IMG/VR virus record: IMGVR_UViG_3300020045_007953
Coordinates: 1-29,733 of that record
DNA length: 29,733 bases
Direction: 5' to 3' (one strand)
From: a virus
Lineage: Duplodnaviria; Caudoviricetes
In this document: positions 1 to 25,782 of the stretch, piece after piece
Numbering within the stretch: the first letter of the stretch is position 1
How the letters are laid out: each line of letters starts with the position of its first letter
Program-made: the position numbers and the translations under genes
The notes under the pieces: model-generated
Told to the model about the DNA's origin: nothing
What the model saw: only the letters and a program-made list of their open reading frames with translations
Databases searched by the model: none

Positions 1-121
1 TTTTTATTAACGGCGCATGTAAAACAGATAATTTTCATTCGATTGCAGTTTTATGCTTATTTTATTAATCCTAAATCTTTAAGTGCTTCGAGTAGTGTTA
101 CTTCGGTGCGGTTTTCGTAGG
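1..121. repeat. Direct repeat copy 1 (identical to 3202-3322; may extend past the window edge)
   Basis: Base-by-base identity of 1-121 with 3202-3322; sequences diverge at 122/3323. Confidence 0.95.
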
Positions 122-287
122 CTTCCCATGCAACTCTTTGTTCAGGCTCGTAATATCCAACACGCGAAATAACCCAACCACGGTATTGGTATTTACCAGC
201 TCTTATTTTTTTGCAAGGATAAACGGCAGGTAACACAGTGTCATACTGCATACCCTCCGTATTTTGTTGCTTATTTTCTTCGCTCAT
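57..287 (-). CDS. Hypothetical chimeric protein (cassette-gene N-terminus fused to the C-terminus of the 3258-3464 protein)
   Basis: ORF track; last 20 aa YENRTEVTLLEALKDLGLIK identical to ORF 3258-3464; start lies within attC-like site A. Confidence 0.55.
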   Translation of the reverse strand: MSEENKQQNTEGMQYDTVLPAVYPCKKIRAGKYQYRGWVISRVGYYEPEQRVAWEAYENRTEVTLLEALKDLGLIK

Positions 288-356
288 AATTTCTACTGTT
301 TTTAAGGTTTATCGCCCGTAGCAAAAGGCTACGCAGCATACACTAATCCGTTATGG
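225..356 (+). other. attC-like recombination site A
   Basis: TAAC (231-234)...GTTA (350-353); arms AGTGTcATACTGCATACCCT / AGGCTACGCAGCATACACT form an imperfect stem with an extra C and A.C mismatches. Confidence 0.75.
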
Positions 357-542
357 GTTATTTAAGTCGCTACTTTCAGCATTCTTTCGGACTTCTTTGA
401 CTTTCTCATAGAATTTGCATAGTGCAGACTCATATCGGACTTTTGCGCTGCTATTTGCATACGCAATCGGTGACAAGCCAAAGAACTCGGCTATATCCGT
501 ATTGGTTAAGCCAAGTTCTTTTTTTAATTCGTTAATTGTCAT
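351..542 (-). CDS. Small helix-turn-helix (XRE-like) protein
   Basis: MTINELKKELGLTNTDIAEFFGLS is HTH-like; likely ATG at 542 overlaps the upstream gene; stop TAA lies in the GTTA core of site A. Confidence 0.6.
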   Translation of the reverse strand: MTINELKKELGLTNTDIAEFFGLSPIAYANSSAKVRYESALCKFYEKVKEVRKNAESSDLNNP

Positions 543-741
543 CTCCGTAGTTTTGCCAGTTAAAACTATCCGGCGAAGAAACATACATCAATATTGGATT
601 ATTATCTTCATAAATAATACCCACGCTTGATTCTTCCCCTTCATGCTCAAAATCCTCAATGTACTTTGCAATTTCTGATAGTTTATCAAAACTTTCAGTC
701 TGTGATCCGGCAACGCTGTCTGAGTAAGTGAATTTTTTCAT
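532..741 (-). CDS. Hypothetical acidic protein
   Basis: 69-aa ORF with ATG start, tightly packed between neighbours. Confidence 0.55.
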   Translation of the reverse strand: MKKFTYSDSVAGSQTESFDKLSEIAKYIEDFEHEGEESSVGIIYEDNNPILMYVSSPDSFNWQNYGDDN

Positions 742-761
742 TTTGTTGATTTTTAGAATTG

Positions 762-1067
762 TTAAAAAGATGTTATTTCATTTTCAATTTTAATAAAAGC
801 AAAGGCAATACACCAAGTTTGTTTTTCGCTCATTGGAAATGTTGACATGCGGAATCTTTTTGCAATGTCAACAACAAAACCCGAACAATTATTTTCAACT
901 GCAAAAAGAATAGAATCGGCAACGTTTGTATAAGTTTTGTCATTGTAATCAAAATTCATACAGTCGAAAACTTTTTTTGCATTTTTAGAAGTTCTAAGGT
1001 CGTTGATCATTTCTTTTGTCACTGTCTGATAAGTGGCTGCTGCTCTAAGGTCTGCTAATTTTGTCAT
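762..1067 (-). CDS. Hypothetical protein
   Basis: ORF track 762-1100; ATG at 1067 fits the promoter box at 1098-1105. Confidence 0.65.
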   Translation of the reverse strand: MTKLADLRAAATYQTVTKEMINDLRTSKNAKKVFDCMNFDYNDKTYTNVADSILFAVENNCSGFVVDIAKRFRMSTFPMSEKQTWCIAFAFIKIENEITSF

Positions 1068-1097
1068 GGTGTCTTGTTTTATTGTTTTTGTATACAC

Positions 1098-1130
1098 CAA
1101 ATATAAGCATTTACTTAATTCCAGTCAATA
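1098..1130 (-). promoter_or_regulatory. Bacteroidetes-type sigma70 promoter inside cassette 1
   Basis: Minus-strand TATATTTG (-7 consensus TAnnTTTG) at 1105-1098 with ATTG about 20 nt upstream. Confidence 0.55.
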
Positions 1131-1196
1131 GGCAAATGAAAATAAATGAAAATATTTTAAGTATTTACTTAGTTTATATTGATTCTAAATAAAAAC

Positions 1197-1329
1197 AACC
1201 CATAACAAACAAATAACCGCAAGTGGGGCGAAGTCACGCTAAGGATGCTATCCAGAATACGAGCATGTCATTTTTAATGAACTTCAATTAATGCCATCCC
1301 CACCTGCGTTTATTTGCGGCACGTTATAA
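1197..1329 (+). other. attC-like recombination site B
   Basis: TAAC 1203-1206...GTTA 1323-1326; arms CAAATAACCGCAAGTGGGG / CCCCACCTGCGTTTATTTG pair 17 of 19. Confidence 0.8.
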
Positions 1330-1339
1330 ACCCATAATA

Positions 1340-1537
1340 TTAGCATTTCGACAGGTTTTTAGCTGCATTTTTCCAAGCTAACGATGGAAACCATCCACGA
1401 CCTAAAATAAAATGATCAGGCTTTGTGAAACAGTCTGATAAAATCAAATAATGATCACGACTGCTATTTGCCATATCTCTTTTGAAAAATAACTCCGCTT
1501 TCGGATATTTTTCTAATATTTTTTGTCTATCAGTCAT
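1340..1537 (-). CDS. Hypothetical protein (sole gene of cassette 2)
   Basis: 65-aa ORF that fills the space between sites B and C. Confidence 0.65.
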   Translation of the reverse strand: MTDRQKILEKYPKAELFFKRDMANSSRDHYLILSDCFTKPDHFILGRGWFPSLAWKNAAKNLSKC

Positions 1538-1544
1538 AAATTAC

Positions 1545-1642
1545 GGGTTATAACTTCGGCTACCCAAAATAGCCGTTTGGTTTCTTCGTTGACAAGTAAG
1601 TATTTCAAAATCGGCTACTTCGTGTAGCCTTCAACGTTATGC
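1545..1642 (+). other. attC-like recombination site C
   Basis: TAAC 1551-1554...GTTA 1636-1639; arms GGCTACCCAAAATAGCCG / CGGCTACTTCGTGTAGCC pair 15 of 18. Confidence 0.8.
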
Positions 1643-2428
1643 ACAACTTAATTTAGCGTAGTGCATTTTGATACATTCAAAAAGATAATGAGCTATTGTT
1701 GGGTTGACAGAGTTTCCGACTGATCCAACTCTGTGTGTCCAGGATTGAAACCCATTGCCATTTCGAATAACTTCACTCGATCCGATTTGGTGAATCCTTT
1801 TCGACAAAGAATATCCATCATTCTGATTTGGTGTCCACTTTCTAAATATCGACTCAAAGCCTCTGTTTGTGCAAACGTAGCTTTGTAATCGCTTTTCGTT
1901 GGAGTAGGCAATAGCATAGAGTCTTTCTCTTTTGTGTGGGTATCCAAAAGCGATGTTTGATATACATTACCATTCTGTACTATACCCGATTTCGGAAAGG
2001 TCGCATAAGACCCGCTCAAATCCTCGTATAAGCAAATCTGGCGAGTTTTCAATGATGACGTATTCAGGTCTAATACTCCGAATAATTCGGTGCATTTCAC
2101 TCCACAACCCACTGCGCTCTCCTTTGATACCTTCCATTTTTCCCGCAACACTAATGTCCTGGCATGGAAATCCTCCACTAATGATGTTAACTCTTTCGGA
2201 TATTGCTGCTGTTCTAACGTCTGTAAATTGCTCATTATCTTTGTAGTGTTTCTTTAAAATGTTTCTTTGAAATGTTTCATATTCGCAATTCCAAAGGGTT
2301 TTAATTCCAGCTCTTTCAGCACCTTCCTCAAATCCACCGATACCGGAAAACAGAGAACCATGTAAAAGCTGTGCATAACTTTGTATTGCCGTCAAGTCCG
2401 GCAGTGTTGGGTTTTCGAGTGCATTCAT
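1637..2428 (-). pseudogene. dcm: DNA (cytosine-5)-methyltransferase interrupted by one in-frame TAA at 1967-1969
   Basis: Motifs SLFSGIGG (I), GGFPCQD (IV), ENS (VI); past the stop the same frame reads CISNIAFGYPHKRERLY (VIII)...GSVGNSV (X) and ends at TAA 1637-1639. Confidence 0.8.
1693..2235 (-). CDS. Alternative-frame protein nested in dcm (putative beta-subunit-like, motif IX carrier)
   Basis: 180-aa open frame wholly inside dcm; LLPTPTKSDYK and FEMAMGFNPGHT resemble alternative-frame products of phage C5-MTase genes. Confidence 0.55.
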   Translation of the reverse strand: MSNLQTLEQQQYPKELTSLVEDFHARTLVLREKWKVSKESAVGCGVKCTELFGVLDLNTSSLKTRQICLYEDLSGSYATFPKSGIVQNGNVYQTSLLDTHTKEKDSMLLPTPTKSDYKATFAQTEALSRYLESGHQIRMMDILCRKGFTKSDRVKLFEMAMGFNPGHTELDQSETLSTQQ

Positions 2429-2503
2429 TCCGTTTGTAGTTTAAATTAATTTGACACTTTTTTACTCGCAGTCCGTCCCTGCGTCAATACATCAGCGTTA
2501 TAT
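2370..2503 (+). other. attC-like recombination site D
   Basis: TAAC 2376-2379...GTTA 2497-2500; arms TGTATTGCCGTCAAG / CCTGCGTCAATACA. Confidence 0.75.
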
Positions 2504-2509
2504 GGGCAT

Positions 2510-2731
2510 TTAAAGAAGGTCGCGGATCAGGCATTCCATTTCTGTTTGATTTAGCTTTGACTTATCAATCCACTCGCAGACAAATACATTTTTTAGGACT
2601 ATTTCTACATTTTTGATTCCACATTCTTCTTCAATTGTATTTATTGCCCTTGCAAGCTTTCTGGCTTTCGAAAGACTTTTGATTTGAAGTCCTTCAAGTA
2701 TTATTTTACTCTGTTCCATCTTCGGTTGCAT
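2510..2731 (-). CDS. Hypothetical protein (cassette 4)
   Basis: 73-aa ORF overlapping the upstream gene. Confidence 0.55.
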   Translation of the reverse strand: MQPKMEQSKIILEGLQIKSLSKARKLARAINTIEEECGIKNVEIVLKNVFVCEWIDKSKLNQTEMECLIRDLL

Positions 2732-2921
2732 TAAATAGACTTAGTCGTTTTTTATAAAGGCTACAGGCTCTTACTGACAATAGATCCACGTCAACATAAT
2801 TCAGTCTAATTCCCAAATCTCGAATTGCTTCTTTTAACGCATAATCAAATATTCCTCTTTTTGTCGTTGCAACTCCGTCTTTCACTAAGACATTTTCTTT
2901 TTGTTTAATGTAATTACTCAT
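2706..2921 (-). CDS. Hypothetical protein (cassette 4)
   Basis: 71-aa ATG ORF starting just after site E. Confidence 0.55.
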   Translation of the reverse strand: MSNYIKQKENVLVKDGVATTKRGIFDYALKEAIRDLGIRLNYVDVDLLSVRACSLYKKRLSLFNATEDGTE

Positions 2922-2942
2922 AATTTAACTAAGATTAAAAAC

Positions 2943-3067
2943 GCCCAATAACTTATGCTTGCCGTCAAGTGGGGCATAGTCGCTCTCTGACAAGTAACCG
3001 GAAATAATCTGTACTTAGGTGTGATCCGGTTAATTTCCACACCTGCGTCAAGCATTCATGCGTTTAT
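2943..3067 (+). other. attC-like recombination site E (array boundary)
   Basis: TAAC 2949-2952...GTT 3062-3064; arms ATGCTTGCCGTCAAGTGGGG / CCACACCTGCGTCAAGCAT. Confidence 0.75.
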
Positions 3068-3068
3068 C

Positions 3069-3239
3069 TCAAAATAATTTCAATTCTGTTACTTTCTCTT
3101 TTGGTGGTGGTGGTGGCTTGCTGGTGCTGTCTTTTCGGTAATCGGGGCAGCTTTGCAGGTCTTTGGCTTGTATGCCTGGTATTTTCAAAATGCTGCATGT
3201 TTTTTTATTAACGGCGCATGTAAAACAGATAATTTTCAT
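3069..3239 (-). CDS. Small Cys-containing hypothetical protein (56 aa, not in ORF track)
   Basis: Manual translation MKIICFTCAVNKKTCSILK...SCPDY...ELKLF*. Confidence 0.5.
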   Translation of the reverse strand: MKIICFTCAVNKKTCSILKIPGIQAKDLQSCPDYRKDSTSKPPPPPKEKVTELKLF

Positions 3240-3322
3240 TCGATTGCAGTTTTATGCTTATTTTATTAATCCTAAATCTTTAAGTGCTTCGAGTAGTGTT
3301 ACTTCGGTGCGGTTTTCGTAGG
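3202..3322. repeat. Direct repeat copy 2
   Basis: Identical to 1-121. Confidence 0.95.
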
Positions 3323-3464
3323 TGTAGCGGCCTTCTATACAATGCGGACAATTTGCTTTGAATTTCTGCCCGGAGGCGTTGGCTTTTAGCTTATAGCCTA
3401 ATCCGCCGCAAATACCGCATAGTCTGGTAACATTTTCGAGTTTGGAAACTTTATATTCTGCCAT
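3258..3464 (-). CDS. Small zinc-finger protein (DnaJ-like CxxCxGxG)
   Basis: CGICGGLG...CPHC motifs. Confidence 0.7.
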   Translation of the reverse strand: MAEYKVSKLENVTRLCGICGGLGYKLKANASGQKFKANCPHCIEGRYTYENRTEVTLLEALKDLGLIK

Positions 3465-3474
3465 TTGTCTGGTT

Positions 3475-6559: not shown

Positions 6560-7136
6560 GGCTGTTGTGGGTTAAAAAGTTCGTTATTTGCTTTATTATC
6601 ATTTTTTGCCTGGTGCCGCGCATAGGCTCCGACTGTATAAAATGTCGGGTGTATATTTGCTGTACTTCGGCTGAATATCCGTATAGCTCTAAATTTTTCA
6701 GGTTGGCGGCGTGCATACGGTCGAGCGTGGCGGCGCGGCTGGTGTTGTATGTGCTTTCGTCTTCCTGGTCGTTTTTGTCGCTTATTTCGCAAAATGTGGC
6801 TACCTCAACGGTGTTACCTTTTGTGTTCAGTATCTTTTGTCCTACTGTGTTTTTCCTGAAACTGGCAAAGTGTGAGCTGGCGTTTACTTTTATCATTGTC
6901 AACACAAATTTGTCGAGCTCGGTGGTTGGCCGCCCGTTTACTATTTTGCGAGTTTCGCGGCTTATCATGCCTTCTATTTTGTCTTCGGGCTTGCGTAGCA
7001 GGTCGGCTATTATGTCGTTCATCAGGTCGTCGGCCCATCCTTCCAAATGCTGTACCTTACACAGGTGGCGGCTGTAATCCATCCAGTTCGGATATCGGAA
7101 GGTTATATAGGCTGAAATGATGGCGGACATGGGCAA
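6507..7136 (-). CDS. Hypothetical protein, possibly sigma-factor-like regulator
   Basis: 209-aa ORF; N-terminal YPNWMDYS...ADDLMNDII loosely resembles ECF sigma region 2. Confidence 0.55.
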   Translation of the reverse strand: MPMSAIISAYITFRYPNWMDYSRHLCKVQHLEGWADDLMNDIIADLLRKPEDKIEGMISRETRKIVNGRPTTELDKFVLTMIKVNASSHFASFRKNTVGQKILNTKGNTVEVATFCEISDKNDQEDESTYNTSRAATLDRMHAANLKNLELYGYSAEVQQIYTRHFIQSEPMRGTRQKMIIKQITNFLTHNSHDFKSNKNHSPELADIG

Positions 7137-7165
7137 ATGTTGAATTTTGTGTCTTGTGTCTTAAA

Positions 7166-7396
7166 TTATTGGCGTTGATTGTAGCCGCATATTTTACATG
7201 TTTCGAAGGTGGCGCCGTGTGTTTTGGGGTCGGTTTCGAATTCATGTTCGCAAATGGCCTGCAGGTCGAGTTTTGCTACTTTAAGCTGGCGTTGGCGCTT
7301 TTCAGTCTTCTTTAGTTCCTGGTCAATTTGTGTTACCAGCGAATTGATGTTTTCTTTCATCAGGTCGGTATCGATTTTTAGCGGTACTGTAAACAT
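7166..7396 (-). CDS. Coiled-coil plus Zn-ribbon hypothetical protein
   Basis: CEH...CKICG motif after a coiled-coil segment. Confidence 0.65.
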   Translation of the reverse strand: MFTVPLKIDTDLMKENINSLVTQIDQELKKTEKRQRQLKVAKLDLQAICEHEFETDPKTHGATFETCKICGYNQRQ

Positions 7397-7480: not shown

Positions 7481-7554
7481 TGGCGCGGGCCGGACTCGAA
7501 CCGGCGGCATCCAGACTATGATTCTGGCGAGATGGCCAACTTCTCTACCGCGCA
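7481..7554 (-). tRNA. tRNA-Met(CAT)-like gene, atypical
   Basis: 74-nt cloverleaf: acceptor GCGCGG/CCGCGC, D stem GAGA/TCTC, anticodon arm CCAGA-ATCATAG-TCTGG, T arm GCCGG-TTCGAGT-CCGGC. Confidence 0.75.
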
Positions 7555-10584: not shown

Positions 10585-11901
10585 TTATGGGTTAAAATAG
10601 GGGTGTGTGGCTATTAGCCTGGCGTTTTCTTCCTGGCTTATGCGTATGTAGCGCATAAATGAGCGCTCTGTTTTGTGCCCTGTAATTTTCATTATCGATA
10701 TAGTCGGTATTCCGGCTAGATACATGTTTGTAGCTCCGCTTCGGCGGGCGGTGTGCGAGCTTACCAGTTGCCATTTTTCGAGCGTGCGGCTTATTTGCTT
10801 GCCGCCTTCGGTGCGCACTACGGTAACGGGTTTGGTAATTCCGGCTAGTTGTGCCAGTTCTTTGAGGTGTTGGTTAAATCGCTGGTCGCTCATTTTTTGC
10901 GATAAGTCGAAACCGGCTGCTAATATTTCATGTATTACCGGGTGTATGGGTATTACTACGTCGTCGTTTTTCTTTACGCCTTTTCTGGGCTTTATGCGTA
11001 TGTATTTGTCGCCAATGTTGTAGCGCTCTAATCGCGAAAAGTCGGAAATTCGCAGGGCTGTGTAACATCCGATTAAAAACAGATTGCGGGTTTTGCTGAT
11101 GGCCTCAACTTTTAAAGCTATATGTTTGCGGGGCAAATTCGGATTAATGAGTGAAACGGTTTCGTAGTTTATTACTGCAGCGCGTAGGCTGGCTAGTTCG
11201 GCGGCGTTTAAATAAATGGTGTCGGCTTCTTCGGTGGTTTTTACAAATTTGCGGTGGTGGTAGTCGGTGGTGGCGTGCAGCTTTTCACCATCGGGGCCGG
11301 TGGCTGTCATTACTGCTTTTATGTGTTTTATGAAGTTTCCGAAGGTGTTGGCGGCGTAATACCTGGGCGGCTGCCCTTCTTTGGTTTCGCGGGGGGTGGC
11401 GTTTACCCATTTGCGCAAACTGTTGTAAAAATCGATGTTAATGTCGGCAAAGGTTAAGCGGGTGCGGTGGGCTGCTTCGTACTTTGCTAAAATGTTGGCG
11501 GTGGTGCCGTAAAATAGGCGCGTGCGCGGTTTTAAATTGGCGGTGTCGGCGTAGTGCCTCATTTGTGGTATAAATAAATCGGTGGGCGTGGCTGGTGCCT
11601 GTTTTATGGCTTTCGGGTTGCATTGCTGTTTTATTTCATCGAGTGCGGGGATTGTGTTTTTGATTCGGGCTTCGTTGAATAGTGTTTTGGCTGCGGCTTC
11701 CCATTGCTCGAGTTTAATGTTTATGGTTTCATGGTCGGGGTAGTCGCGGGTGTTGCGTGCGCGGTGGGTGGCGGCGTCCCAGTAGGTAACCTCAACGGAT
11801 ATGCCTGTAGATAGTTTGTAGCGCTGTCCTTTGTAGCGCATTATCGACAAAATAGCTGTTTTGGTGGCTTTTTTGTCTTTGAGAAAAAAGTTAATATTCA
11901 T
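10585..11901 (-). CDS. int: Tyrosine recombinase / phage integrase (Bacteroidetes type)
   Basis: Arm-binding N-terminus (YKLSTGISV..WD); catalytic motifs TALRISD, HTARRS, ITGH...Y; ATG at 11901 follows a TAGCTTTG box at 11929-11922. Confidence 0.95.
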   Translation of the reverse strand: MNINFFLKDKKATKTAILSIMRYKGQRYKLSTGISVEVTYWDAATHRARNTRDYPDHETINIKLEQWEAAAKTLFNEARIKNTIPALDEIKQQCNPKAIKQAPATPTDLFIPQMRHYADTANLKPRTRLFYGTTANILAKYEAAHRTRLTFADINIDFYNSLRKWVNATPRETKEGQPPRYYAANTFGNFIKHIKAVMTATGPDGEKLHATTDYHHRKFVKTTEEADTIYLNAAELASLRAAVINYETVSLINPNLPRKHIALKVEAISKTRNLFLIGCYTALRISDFSRLERYNIGDKYIRIKPRKGVKKNDDVVIPIHPVIHEILAAGFDLSQKMSDQRFNQHLKELAQLAGITKPVTVVRTEGGKQISRTLEKWQLVSSHTARRSGATNMYLAGIPTISIMKITGHKTERSFMRYIRISQEENARLIATHPYFNP

Positions 11902-11943
11902 TGCCCGAGTAGTTAGGTTTACAAAGCTACTGAATATTTTAAA

Positions 11944-12137
11944 GGGTAACAAAATGGGGAACACCAAAAGCATTATGAACCGCATTTTTATACTTTATTC
12001 GCTCTGAACTACGCGCTAAATGCAGCGTTTTAAATGATCAATATAAAATGTGTGTTATTATTTGGTATTCCCAACCGGGATACAAAAAGCCGCTATTTAA
12101 GCGGCTTTTATTGTTTTGGGGAACAAATTGGGGAACG
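11944..12137. other. Putative attP: paired arm-type repeats flanking a tRNA-3'-end-like core
   Basis: GGGTAACAAAATGGGGAAC (11944) and GGGGAACAAATTGGGGAAC (12118) flank TGGTATTCCCAACCGGGAT (12063), whose reverse complement ends GGGAATACCA. Confidence 0.6.
12084..12109. terminator. Bidirectional intrinsic terminator-like hairpin
   Basis: AAAAAGCCGC-TATTTAA-GCGGCTTTT. Confidence 0.65.
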
Positions 12138-24416: not shown

Positions 24417-24824
24417 TTAATAATAAGCGGTGCGGATGTTGAAAATTAGCTTGTGCCCGTACATGTTTACTGGTGTGAATTCGTATTCGTCTTCGATTGA
24501 TTTAACGCGGTCGATCCTGAATTCGATGTTTTTAAATGTGCCGCGCTGGCGTTCTAAGGCGTTACGGAGTGCCAGTGCTATTGTCCAGCTTTTTTCGTAT
24601 CCTTTGGCTATGGTTAAGAACGTTAGTATGTGGTCTTGTGCTACTGGCCCGTTTTTGGTGTGCACCGGATACATTACTACACTGTAATATATTGCCGCTA
24701 ATTGTGTTTCGGATTGTTCGGGTATGTCGATAATTGGGTAGATGCGGTCGTCGACTATTGCGGCTAATGCGGTGGCTTCGGTGGTGGCTCCTGTGAGTAT
24801 GTCTATTATTGCTTTTGAGATCAT
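24417..24824 (-). CDS. Tail completion/terminator protein
   Basis: LAAIVDDRIYP...IALALRNALE; gene position. Confidence 0.75.
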   Translation of the reverse strand: MISKAIIDILTGATTEATALAAIVDDRIYPIIDIPEQSETQLAAIYYSVVMYPVHTKNGPVAQDHILTFLTIAKGYEKSWTIALALRNALERQRGTFKNIEFRIDRVKSIEDEYEFTPVNMYGHKLIFNIRTAYY

Positions 24825-24894
24825 GGCGGCTGAAATGTTAAATGTTGAATTATAAATCTTGAATCTTGTGTCTTGTATCTTGTATCTTGAATTA

Positions 24895-25371
24895 TTACAT
24901 TTTGCTTTGTATGAGGTTTTCGAGGCGTGTTATCATGCTGTCGCGTAGCTGGTCGGTTACTTTTAATTCGGTGTTTTGTACTGAGTCGGTGAAAAAGTTT
25001 GTAGCTACCAGTCGCCCGCGGTTGTATCCTTTGCGGGTTTGGCGGTTGGCTGTTCCGGCGTCGATTAAATGGCCGTGAAACCCCCTAAATGGCCGGTATT
25101 TTCGGGCGCCTACTTTGGCGGTTACAAAATTGCTGTTGCCTTTCTTTTTGTCGGGCACAAAGCCGAGCGAGTTATATAAATTCATGGTACGCGAACGGCG
25201 TTTCAGTTTGCGCACTAATTGGCCTTTCGACTCGCTGATTAGTGGCTCGGTGGCTTCCTGGTAGGCGTCTTGTACTAGCTGGTATTTTTCGGCGCGGCTG
25301 AGTGAACGAAAAAAGGCTTCTAGTTTTTCGTCTCCAAACATTTGTGCAGATTCTCGTCCTTTCAAAGCCAT
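24895..25371 (-). CDS. HK97 gp10-like neck protein
   Basis: HGHLIDAGT..R...RG motif; gene position. Confidence 0.75.
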   Translation of the reverse strand: MALKGRESAQMFGDEKLEAFFRSLSRAEKYQLVQDAYQEATEPLISESKGQLVRKLKRRSRTMNLYNSLGFVPDKKKGNSNFVTAKVGARKYRPFRGFHGHLIDAGTANRQTRKGYNRGRLVATNFFTDSVQNTELKVTDQLRDSMITRLENLIQSKM

Positions 25372-25437
25372 GTTTAATTGTAAATGTTGAATGTTGAATT
25401 GTAAATCTTGTGTCTTGAATCTTGTGTCTTGTGTCTA

Positions 25438-25782
25438 TTATGGTGTATATAGTTCGATGGTGCCGGGCATGGTGCGGGTGCCGGTTATGTATAGGTATGT
25501 TTTACGGGCGTCGGCTTCTGGGCTGGCTATGGTGTAGTAGTCGCCGCGCCAAAGTATTACCATGCTTTCGGCGTAGCGGTTTAATGCAAAGCGTACTTTA
25601 AATTTTTGAATTTTGCCTATCATGGCGGCGCCTAGTTCCATTTGCCGCTCTGATGAAACGAAACTAATGTCGGCGCGGTCGAAAAAGGCGTGCTGATATT
25701 TCCGAACCCGTTCGTTTGATTCGTTTTTTGTTATGGTTTCTTCGAGTACTTCTATGCGTTCGCGTTGTGATCCTGATAGCAT
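25438..25782 (-). CDS. Head-tail adaptor (SPP1 gp16-like)
   Basis: G..RERIE...FKVRF...MVILWRGDYYTI. Confidence 0.8.
   Translation of the reverse strand: MLSGSQRERIEVLEETITKNESNERVRKYQHAFFDRADISFVSSERQMELGAAMIGKIQKFKVRFALNRYAESMVILWRGDYYTIASPEADARKTYLYITGTRTMPGTIELYTP

Follow-up and report, generated by a model that had tools for sequence, protein, structure and literature searches.

Can an array of attC-like hairpins whose genes all run against the sites belong to a working cassette system, and if so, to which one? The question is raised by the virus record IMGVR_UViG_3300020045_007953, the entire 29,733 bases of which form the window analyzed here (CheckV completeness, 45%). Five such hairpins, named A to E, lie near its left end. 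An earlier note on this DNA had proposed a phage-adapted inverted cassette class in which the recombination site doubles as a translation initiation region and N-terminal coding sequence. From comparison with related viral and chromosomal loci, we consider it probable (roughly 80%) that the five hairpins bound mobile cassettes and act as recombination sites in an integron-like system belonging to phages of Bacteroidota, served by a short tyrosine recombinase without the I2 insertion.

A hairpin detector that scores both strands identically, with G.T and A.C pairs weighted equally, found five TAAC...GTT hairpins in the whole window, all within 231-3065 and all of one polarity. Shuffled windows gave a mean of 1.05 matches (maximum 3; 40 shuffles), and shuffled versions of positions 1-3300 a mean of 0.195 (maximum 3; 200 shuffles). 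The five sites are listed below, with spacers on the TAAC side and the GTT side given in that order.

231-353, plus strand: site A, an attC-like hairpin; spacers 2/5, 5' arm longer by one base, crossover at G350|TT; ATG 287 (minus strand) sits in its loop
1203-1326, plus strand: site B; spacers 3/6, crossover at G1323|TT, the best folding of the five; the following gene has no in-frame start in B
1551-1639, plus strand: site C; spacers 3/6, short class (89 nucleotides, nt), crossover at G1636|TT
2376-2500, plus strand: site D; spacers 2/5, crossover at G2497|TT; contains ATG 2428 and about 17 first codons of the DNA methyltransferase gene dcm
2949-3065, plus strand: site E, the last of the array; spacers 2/6, core GTTT, with one T extra relative to sister alleles

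The asymmetry reported in the earlier note, a short spacer after TAAC and a long one before GTT on the plus strand, is seen in every site (2-3 and 5-6 nt). Its mismatch claims likewise stood on recounting: the first 18 stem pairs of sites A-E hold seven A.C and no G.T mismatches on the plus strand, and B-E have in common a C.T mismatch 10 nt (three sites) or 11 nt (one site) after TAAC. A MAFFT alignment of the five sites gave nothing informative. Across the whole set of sites collected below, the members are palindromes of 85-128 nt with variable arms. Those of viral loci L057-L149 and L311-L390 fall into two length classes, ~85-92 and 115-130 nt, and chromosomal sites are mostly ~125 nt long (33/45); starts are held in the long class only.

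Whether the reversed genes are a peculiarity of this contig was addressed with three samples. A pattern covering both site ends, built from site C, recovered 93 viral loci, most with co-polar arrays; a first viral pattern had returned 38 loci, nearly all chance, with a two-site array in L037 only. A recombinase profile search matched 206 viral and 322 genome loci, of which the best 80 in each group were used. The 80 genome loci constitute the chromosomal sample; narrow patterns gave one match in five genomes and one in 301 Bacteroidota genomes. Counted over cassettes with complementary ends, with the longest open reading frames (ORFs) taken as genes, viral cassettes comprised 133 antisense (70 + 60 + 3), 0 sense, and 26 unclear cases (12 + 9 + 5), or 130, 0, and 21 once eight pattern loci that also carry the recombinase were set aside. 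The window itself contributes two antisense cassettes and two unclear ones with several genes each; the ORFs taken as genes lie on the minus strand, as had been claimed. In genome loci whose array lies upstream of the recombinase, 7 cassettes were antisense, 0 sense, and 2 unclear; in those whose array lies downstream, 12 were sense, 1 was antisense, and 3 were unclear. Among seven upstream-type genome loci scanned, L251 encodes a terminase, L252 DnaB and an integrase, and L291 an integrase and a methyltransferase; L231, L238, and L244 have phage-family matches and L239 has none. The downstream-type loci sit amid housekeeping genes. Polaribacter phage P12002L carries five short-first sites on its plus strand, with the surrounding genes on minus. 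By these counts, the inversion is specific to phage-type arrays; in chromosomes, arrays built from this site family have their genes in sense. The survey of phage against chromosomal arrays proposed in the earlier note thus came out antisense in phages and sense in Bacteroidota chromosomes, and both its statement that the genes oppose attC polarity, the reverse of typical cassettes, and its phage-adapted inverted class are borne out. Just after the last detected site of one chromosomal array, L247:13030-15130 encodes a C5 methyltransferase and an NgoFVII-like nuclease.

The meaning of "antisense" depends on which strand is top, which had been assigned by analogy with attC. In place of the analogy we used three tests: end complementarity, flank-sharing pairs, and natural junctions in public contigs. 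The six core-adjacent bases pair across the cassette at five or more positions in 3/4 window cassettes, 77/108 and 84/107 viral cassettes, and 25/31 cassettes of genome contigs. The same pairing within one site occurs in 0, 7, 7, and 14% of cases across the four sets, and between random pairs in 5-6% (three large sets) and 13% (the five-site window set); in P12002L, one of two cassettes has complementary ends. A blastn comparison of 188 cassette cores yielded no homologous pair covering 60%, and flanks were compared in its place. Among 411 distinct sites, pairs sharing just the flank after GTT have different hairpins (0/10 at ≥80% identity), and pairs sharing just the other flank retain the hairpin up to the G in 13/22 cases; this comparison leaves out pairs with partial flank matches, and its pairs are not independent. 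In sister contigs from runs X1, X2, and X9, all of one study, the flank from 3064 (TTATCTC) is joined at G|TT to three other hairpin arms; in a fourth sister contig, the hairpin E arm runs into another cassette start, and contig X8 breaks at 3071, not at G|TT. With natural exchange at G|TT on plus, and with end complementarity spanning the cassette rather than the single site, the top strand is plus; a cassette, as read from these junctions, is TT...gene...hairpin...G on plus. Junctions in sister contigs and related arrays therefore uphold what had been argued by analogy, and the bottom-strand oligonucleotide of attC aadA7, which has the longer spacer first in the available supplement of Qi et al. 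(2023; PMC9892861, Table S3), fits the same polarity. The same hairpin and left flank also occur twice in one array, with differing neighbors after G|TT, at L074:623/3625, L243:9375/15438, and L270:11478/14140; these repeats may be cassette duplications, as replicative excision and re-insertion would give.

Which enzyme would act on such sites? Several related viral arrays end at a 270-residue tyrosine recombinase consisting of PF13495 (N-terminal, as in IntI) and PF00589. In the two sets of 80 best-scoring loci, viral and genomic, this family is almost confined to Bacteroidota records. It scores below the IntI and XerC/D cut-offs (TIGR02249, 173 vs 265 bits), and its best NCBIfam match, NF040815, reaches 208.6 bits against a cut-off of 220. 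The I2 insertion is absent: the enzyme has ~40 residues fewer, profile positions 154-177 spanning IntI4 residues 179-245. The closest solved structures are archaeal and XerA-like (4a8e, E = 9e-49; 5hxy, 1e-46), followed by IntI4 (1e-38). A long-first site lies upstream of the recombinase in 52/60 viral loci with at least 1 kb there, and a short-first site in 0/60; any site downstream was found in 0/78, and 4/97 control loci had any site at all. In genome loci, short-first sites lie downstream in 15/44, long-first sites downstream in 1/44, and long-first sites upstream in 8/72. The outer end of the recombinase-proximal cassette was located in 55/57 viral loci, in 42 of them no more than 100 nt from the gene. 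There, a conserved attI-like motif reads TACATATAGTAG|TT on the top strand; 29/42 are within two mismatches of the consensus, and 42/42 have G at the crossover although the search did not require it. The chromosomal attI-like end (found in 14/22 rows) mostly lies 53-171 nt after the recombinase, at up to ~500 nt, and in one case at 1369. On an unrooted FastTree phylogeny of 146 proteins, the antisense-type (52) and sense-type (19) rows part at one branch with support 89; the tree requires one orientation change vs 16.9 in shuffles, with 0/500 shuffles as low. The evidence points to an enzyme of non-IntI type for these sites.

Along the gene strand, related phages present backbone, cassettes, attI-like site, and recombinase gene in this order, so that recombinase, attI, and hairpins are arranged as in classical integrons and the reversal concerns the genes alone. 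Chromosomal hairpins of this kind are found downstream of a sister recombinase clade, and there the genes are sense. Cassettes would be exchanged at G|TT on plus while their genes are read on minus. By analogy with attC, for which the accessible part of one account describes recombination via the folded bottom strand (PMC8946536), we infer that the enzyme acts here on the bottom strand in its folded form. An incoming cassette would insert at attI beside the recombinase, and transcription of the cassette genes would probably run on from the phage early operon or start in a promoter cassette, rather than at a Pc in attI.

Folding is in part consistent with this scheme. In the window, the minus strand folds better as DNA in all five sites, by 1.1-5.2 kcal/mol, and the minimum free energy structure is a complete hairpin only for the minus strands of B and C and for E (z -2.9 to -3.8). 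Beyond the window, the bottom strand folds better in 260/316 viral and 33/45 chromosomal sites, and mismatches on the top strand are A.C rather than G.T by 510:70 and 74:19, respectively. The wobble bias tracks the site rather than the transcript: chromosomal sites keep it although their bottom strand does not code, and on this ground we rejected mRNA as its origin.

What, then, do the hairpins contribute to the genes? ORF 57-287 and dcm had been said to start inside their own hairpins, and ATG 287 indeed lies within hairpin A and ATG 2428 within hairpin D, both on minus, but ORF 57-287 is chimeric and dcm carries a premature stop. No ATG, GTG, or TTG occurs in dcm between hairpin D and motif I, and most of 80 dcm homologs start 2-8 codons ahead of that motif. 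In L150, a 77% identical dcm sits on a different hairpin, in a different frame, and is again in frame with the loop ATG. Similarly, a homolog of gene 122-287 sits on a different hairpin in L394, a one-base length difference keeping each of the two genes in frame with its own hairpin ATG. Among antisense cassettes, a gene-frame ATG lies inside the upstream hairpin in 49/95 long and 2/48 short sites (by a looser count, 54/95 gene frames vs 37/190 other frames). The start context scored was an A at -3 with an A-rich leader. An open ATG in this context is found on the bottom strand of 61/173 viral long sites, on the top strand of 0/173, and on either strand of 0/34 chromosomal sites; one of the four long sites of the window passes the rule. 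Each gene lies behind its own hairpin, so that a long one can provide an A-rich region for initiation, an ATG, and 14-25 N-terminal codons. Read from sequence, the proposed double role of the site is supported across the family for the gene strand of phage sites, in long hairpins only, in about half of these, and in two of the five here. The stops placed at the core by the earlier note are where it put them, at TTA 351-353 and TTA 1637-1639 on minus, the latter ending the dcm frame, which accounts for 2/4 complete window cassettes. Family-wide, 35/143 cassettes stop at the core and 92 stop no more than 40 nt before it; core stops were rejected as a special feature, being a minority.

Several points weigh against the integron-like reading. 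The profile search found no recombinase of the array-linked type encoded on the window, the linkage being drawn from other genomes, and a motif search of the window found no attI-like motif. Sites A and D, on which the embedded starts lie, are near the shuffled background in DNA folding (z -0.4 to -1.0), which qualifies the folding-energy check suggested earlier: minus is favored in each site, and two of the five do not exceed background. The top strand folds better in 50/316 viral sites. No constant extrahelical base is evident, as the 316 viral sites have 34 bulges on the classical side and 91 on the other (3/5 window sites have one on the classical side; chromosomal sites, 4 classical vs 3 other, n = 45). 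Sampling was seeded with phage sequences, orientation was counted only over cassettes with complementary ends with the longest ORFs as genes, and one cassette of a chromosomal sense-type array is antisense (L237:9290-10200). The recombinase tree is unrooted, its key support is 89, 75 of its 146 rows are unlabelled, and long-branch warnings apply. In 9/22 flank-sharing pairs, the same gene end lies on a different hairpin, and a 96% identical copy of hairpin A heads a different gene in L394 and L395; either the R'' end also exchanges, then, or cassettes are made repeatedly. A model with bottom-strand recombination only does not explain this re-pairing, which may reflect recombination of the top strand, cassettes formed more than once, or deletion at microhomologies. 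Nor is an enzyme without I2, acting on sites without a fixed extrahelical base, known to have a means of avoiding the second exchange.

In one alternative, the same cassettes and enzyme are at work but the recombinase acts in a Xer- or Cre-like manner on double-stranded cores, with the hairpin not serving as the substrate or with both ends used. The XerA-like nearest structures, ahead of IntI4, and the missing I2 fit such a mode, as do the lack of a constant extrahelical base, the re-pairing at R'' in 9/22 pairs, and the double-strand pathway that IntI itself retains according to the available text of Escudero et al. (PMC4792948). It would not account for stem arms that diverge widely in sequence while pairing is maintained, for a wobble bias bound to one DNA strand under both gene orientations, for the single polarity of every array, or for an N-terminal domain shared with IntI (PF13495), and we regard it as unlikely.

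A more conventional explanation is an ordinary CALIN (a cluster of attC sites with no integron integrase), with classical attC sites, a host IntI, and genes reversed by chance. A CALIN is defined by at least two sites without a nearby integron integrase; the contig has five attC-like sites and encodes no cassette recombinase, but it is 45% complete and breaks 230 nt from site A. The sites resemble attC in their TAAC...G|TT cores, in where they cross over, and in folding on the bottom strand, and phage CALINs are described in the accessible part of Qi et al. (2023; PMC9892861). The spacers of 2-3/5-6 nt depart from the 5/6 of the aadA7 oligonucleotide, however, and the family member P12002L_attC1 yielded no IntI1 × attI1 product in that part of the paper. 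Moreover, related arrays are linked to an I2-less enzyme under the TIGR02249 cut-off, and IntegronFinder surveys, in the text available, report almost no complete Bacteroidetes integrons (PMC9024848). This explanation is very improbable. Least credible of all is that the hairpins are elements of mRNA processing, termination, or initiation among genes that homologous or illegitimate recombination has shuffled: in phages it is the coding strand that folds better, and the A-rich loops contain start codons, but the chromosomal sites keep the wobble bias and the better-folding bottom strand where this strand is non-coding, breakpoints fall at one base between dissimilar hairpins, and an mRNA role explains neither the complementary cassette ends nor an attI beside the recombinase.

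Returning to the integron-like reading, a further step can be taken tentatively, at somewhat less than even odds: the sites may belong to a second system of hairpin recombination that is independent of I2 and perhaps similar to what existed before IntI gained its insertion, with a chromosomal branch, a phage branch that has a recombinase clade and attI of its own, and phage hairpins making cassettes. Within this extension, and with equal reserve, ordinary phage genes might lose their native start, be grafted in frame onto a hairpin arm that supplies the initiation region, and be re-paired with hairpins at the R'' end. If so, cassette genesis would be observable and testable.

The setting of the array is that of a phage. 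Protein family matches identify a terminase, a major head protein, PcfJ/PcfK, and an arm-binding integrase, which together indicate a temperate phage. The closest matches of the dcm gene are Bacteroides phages, and this resemblance, with a recombinase family near-exclusive to Bacteroidota records, makes Bacteroidota the inferred host; in a blastn search against named phages, the window matched at dcm alone. The 466-residue integrase at 10585-11985 was ruled out as the cassette enzyme, being an arm-binding prophage integrase (E = 5e-5 to the recombinase profile). The contig breaks on the left 230 nt from site A, and in relatives attI and the recombinase sit on this side; they would lie beyond the broken end, or the enzyme would be supplied in trans. 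A metagenome scan with ORF 3258-3464 returned one weak 1.8-kb locus and recovered neither the left array end nor the recombinase. Sequencing runs matched at 5-12% of the words, from which we draw no habitat. Hairpin arrays were not found in 18 loci of PcfJ relatives. An Rfam search of the window gave a single tRNA and nothing else; this gene lies at 7481-7554 (-), in the early region. A ~30-nt repeat occurs six times among the structural genes (21155, 23136, 25807, 26466, 28466, and 28495), often preceded by runs of 7-nt units, and such runs also occur at 24819-24901, 25368-25450, and 7136-7166.

The cassettes and their surroundings, in order along the contig, are as follows.

1-121, no strand assigned: contig end that repeats 3202-3322 exactly; a 7-nt microhomology marks the join
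122-287, minus strand: 5' part of a cassette gene that starts within hairpin A; the contig lacks the real 3' end of this gene
351-1323 (TT351 to G1323), minus strand: cassette 1; ORFs 762-1067, 532-741, and 351-584 with hairpin B; ends complementary over 10/10 nt
1324-1636, minus strand: cassette 2; ORF 1340-1537 (65 residues, no family match) with short hairpin C; start outside the hairpin
1637-2497, minus strand: cassette 3; C5 DNA methyltransferase gene 2428-1637 (dcm) with hairpin D; ends complementary over 10/10 nt
2498-3062, minus strand: cassette 4; ORFs 2706-2921 and 2510-2731 (no family matches) with hairpin E
3063-3466, plus strand: fixed phage flank beyond the array, holding ORF 3258-3464

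Because 1-121 copies 3202-3322, ORF 57-287 is chimeric, its last 20 residues being the end of ORF 3258-3464. Left of 115, the L394 homolog and a sister contig continue with sequence different from the window, and the duplication is either an assembly artefact or a strain-specific rearrangement. The two copies of the 121-nt repeat would delimit a 3201-bp loop enclosing the entire array. In cassette 1, a Bacteroidota-type motif TAnnTTTG, which we take to be a promoter consensus, lies at 1098-1105 (-) ahead of the three small genes, and the first of these likely starts at 1067 rather than 1100; ORF 351-584 has a faint helix-turn-helix match. The homology of a sister contig to the window starts at 350, the piece 518-1077 is present in another contig, and an AT-rich leader like that of cassette 1 follows the last site of L150. 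In cassette 3, the dcm frames match PF00145 (E = 5e-30), phrog_363, and phrog_1008. The gene is interrupted by an in-frame TAA at 1967-1969, a position with a sense codon in 80/80 homologs and in all 11 overlapping public contigs. A second frame overlapping dcm, ORF 1693-2235 (-), matches the methyltransferase family phrog_1008, and its C-terminal stretch presumably resembles motif IX. The overlap recalls the alpha/beta overlap of M.EcoHK31I, as described in the available part of PMC2836561. The ATG of hairpin E opens a 45-codon frame (2918-3055, -), the stop of which overlaps the start of ORF 2706-2921 (ATGA); translational coupling or chance is possible. Apart from the faint helix-turn-helix match, only the dcm frames among the cassette ORFs gave family matches. 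Given the chimeric ORF, the dcm stop, and the extra T in core E, the array may be decaying or the assembly flawed.

Compared with integrons, the array agrees in its imperfect palindromes that bound cassettes, AAC and GTT cores, and crossover at G|TT. On the bottom strand, which folds better, the longer spacer precedes the shorter one, a PF13495 tyrosine recombinase has an attI-like site beside it in relatives, and the phage form keeps the classical int-attI-attC geometry. It differs in the absence of I2, in spacers of 2-3/5-6 nt, in wobble pairs with no constant extrahelical base, and in long sites that provide a start and N-terminal codons. All called phage cassettes are antisense, with genes pointing to attI, whereas the chromosomal form has its array downstream of the recombinase gene and carries genes sense with the top strand, as in integrons (12/16). 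Judged by sequence, the array is integron-like in operation, as far as this can be read from its sites, and departs from integrons in IntI, extrahelical base, and gene orientation. XerA/XerCD-type simple recombinases share the 270-residue two-domain enzyme without an arm-binding domain; here the enzyme is tied to hairpin cassette arrays, not to dif. The accessible part of Smyshlyaev et al. (2021; PMC8138268) notes that the integron insertion is incompletely conserved in the integron-like subgroup.

The phage CALINs of Qi et al. (2023; PMC9892861), exemplified by P12002L, are the closest published counterpart: in the text available, P12002L is a Bacteroidota phage with hairpin clusters, DNA-methyltransferase cargo, and no IntI. 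P12002L_attC1 (NC_028924:30008-30056) has the same 3/6 geometry as sites B and C, and P12002L_attC2, which did recombine according to that text, lacks this geometry by our detector. There, the sites are treated as ordinary attC with divergent directions noted, and the available portion names no cognate recombinase, attI, systematic antisense arrangement, or embedded starts. Short ORFs in attC that couple translation (PMC8876359, in its accessible part) likewise let an attC hairpin affect translation of the next gene, but as a separate small ORF in the attC of the upstream cassette, whereas here the gene's own start lies in its own site on the opposite strand. We found no published description of the present system in a search that mostly excluded subscription literature, and a prior account may have been missed.

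If the proposed reading holds, phages would have a platform of their own on which methyltransferases and further small genes are exchanged. Surveys have reported almost no complete integrons in Bacteroidetes (PMC9024848, in the part available) because they seek IntI; complete recombinase-attI-array elements with an I2-less enzyme appear common in Bacteroidota phages and present in chromosomes. The origin of cassettes is a long-open question, and one gene on different hairpins, each time in frame with the ATG of the hairpin concerned, gives a direct lead on cassette formation. For classical integrons, the joint origin of I2 and extrahelical bases is posed as a chicken-and-egg problem in the available text of Escudero et al. 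(PMC4792948); a system without I2 and without extrahelical bases would make this joint-origin question testable.

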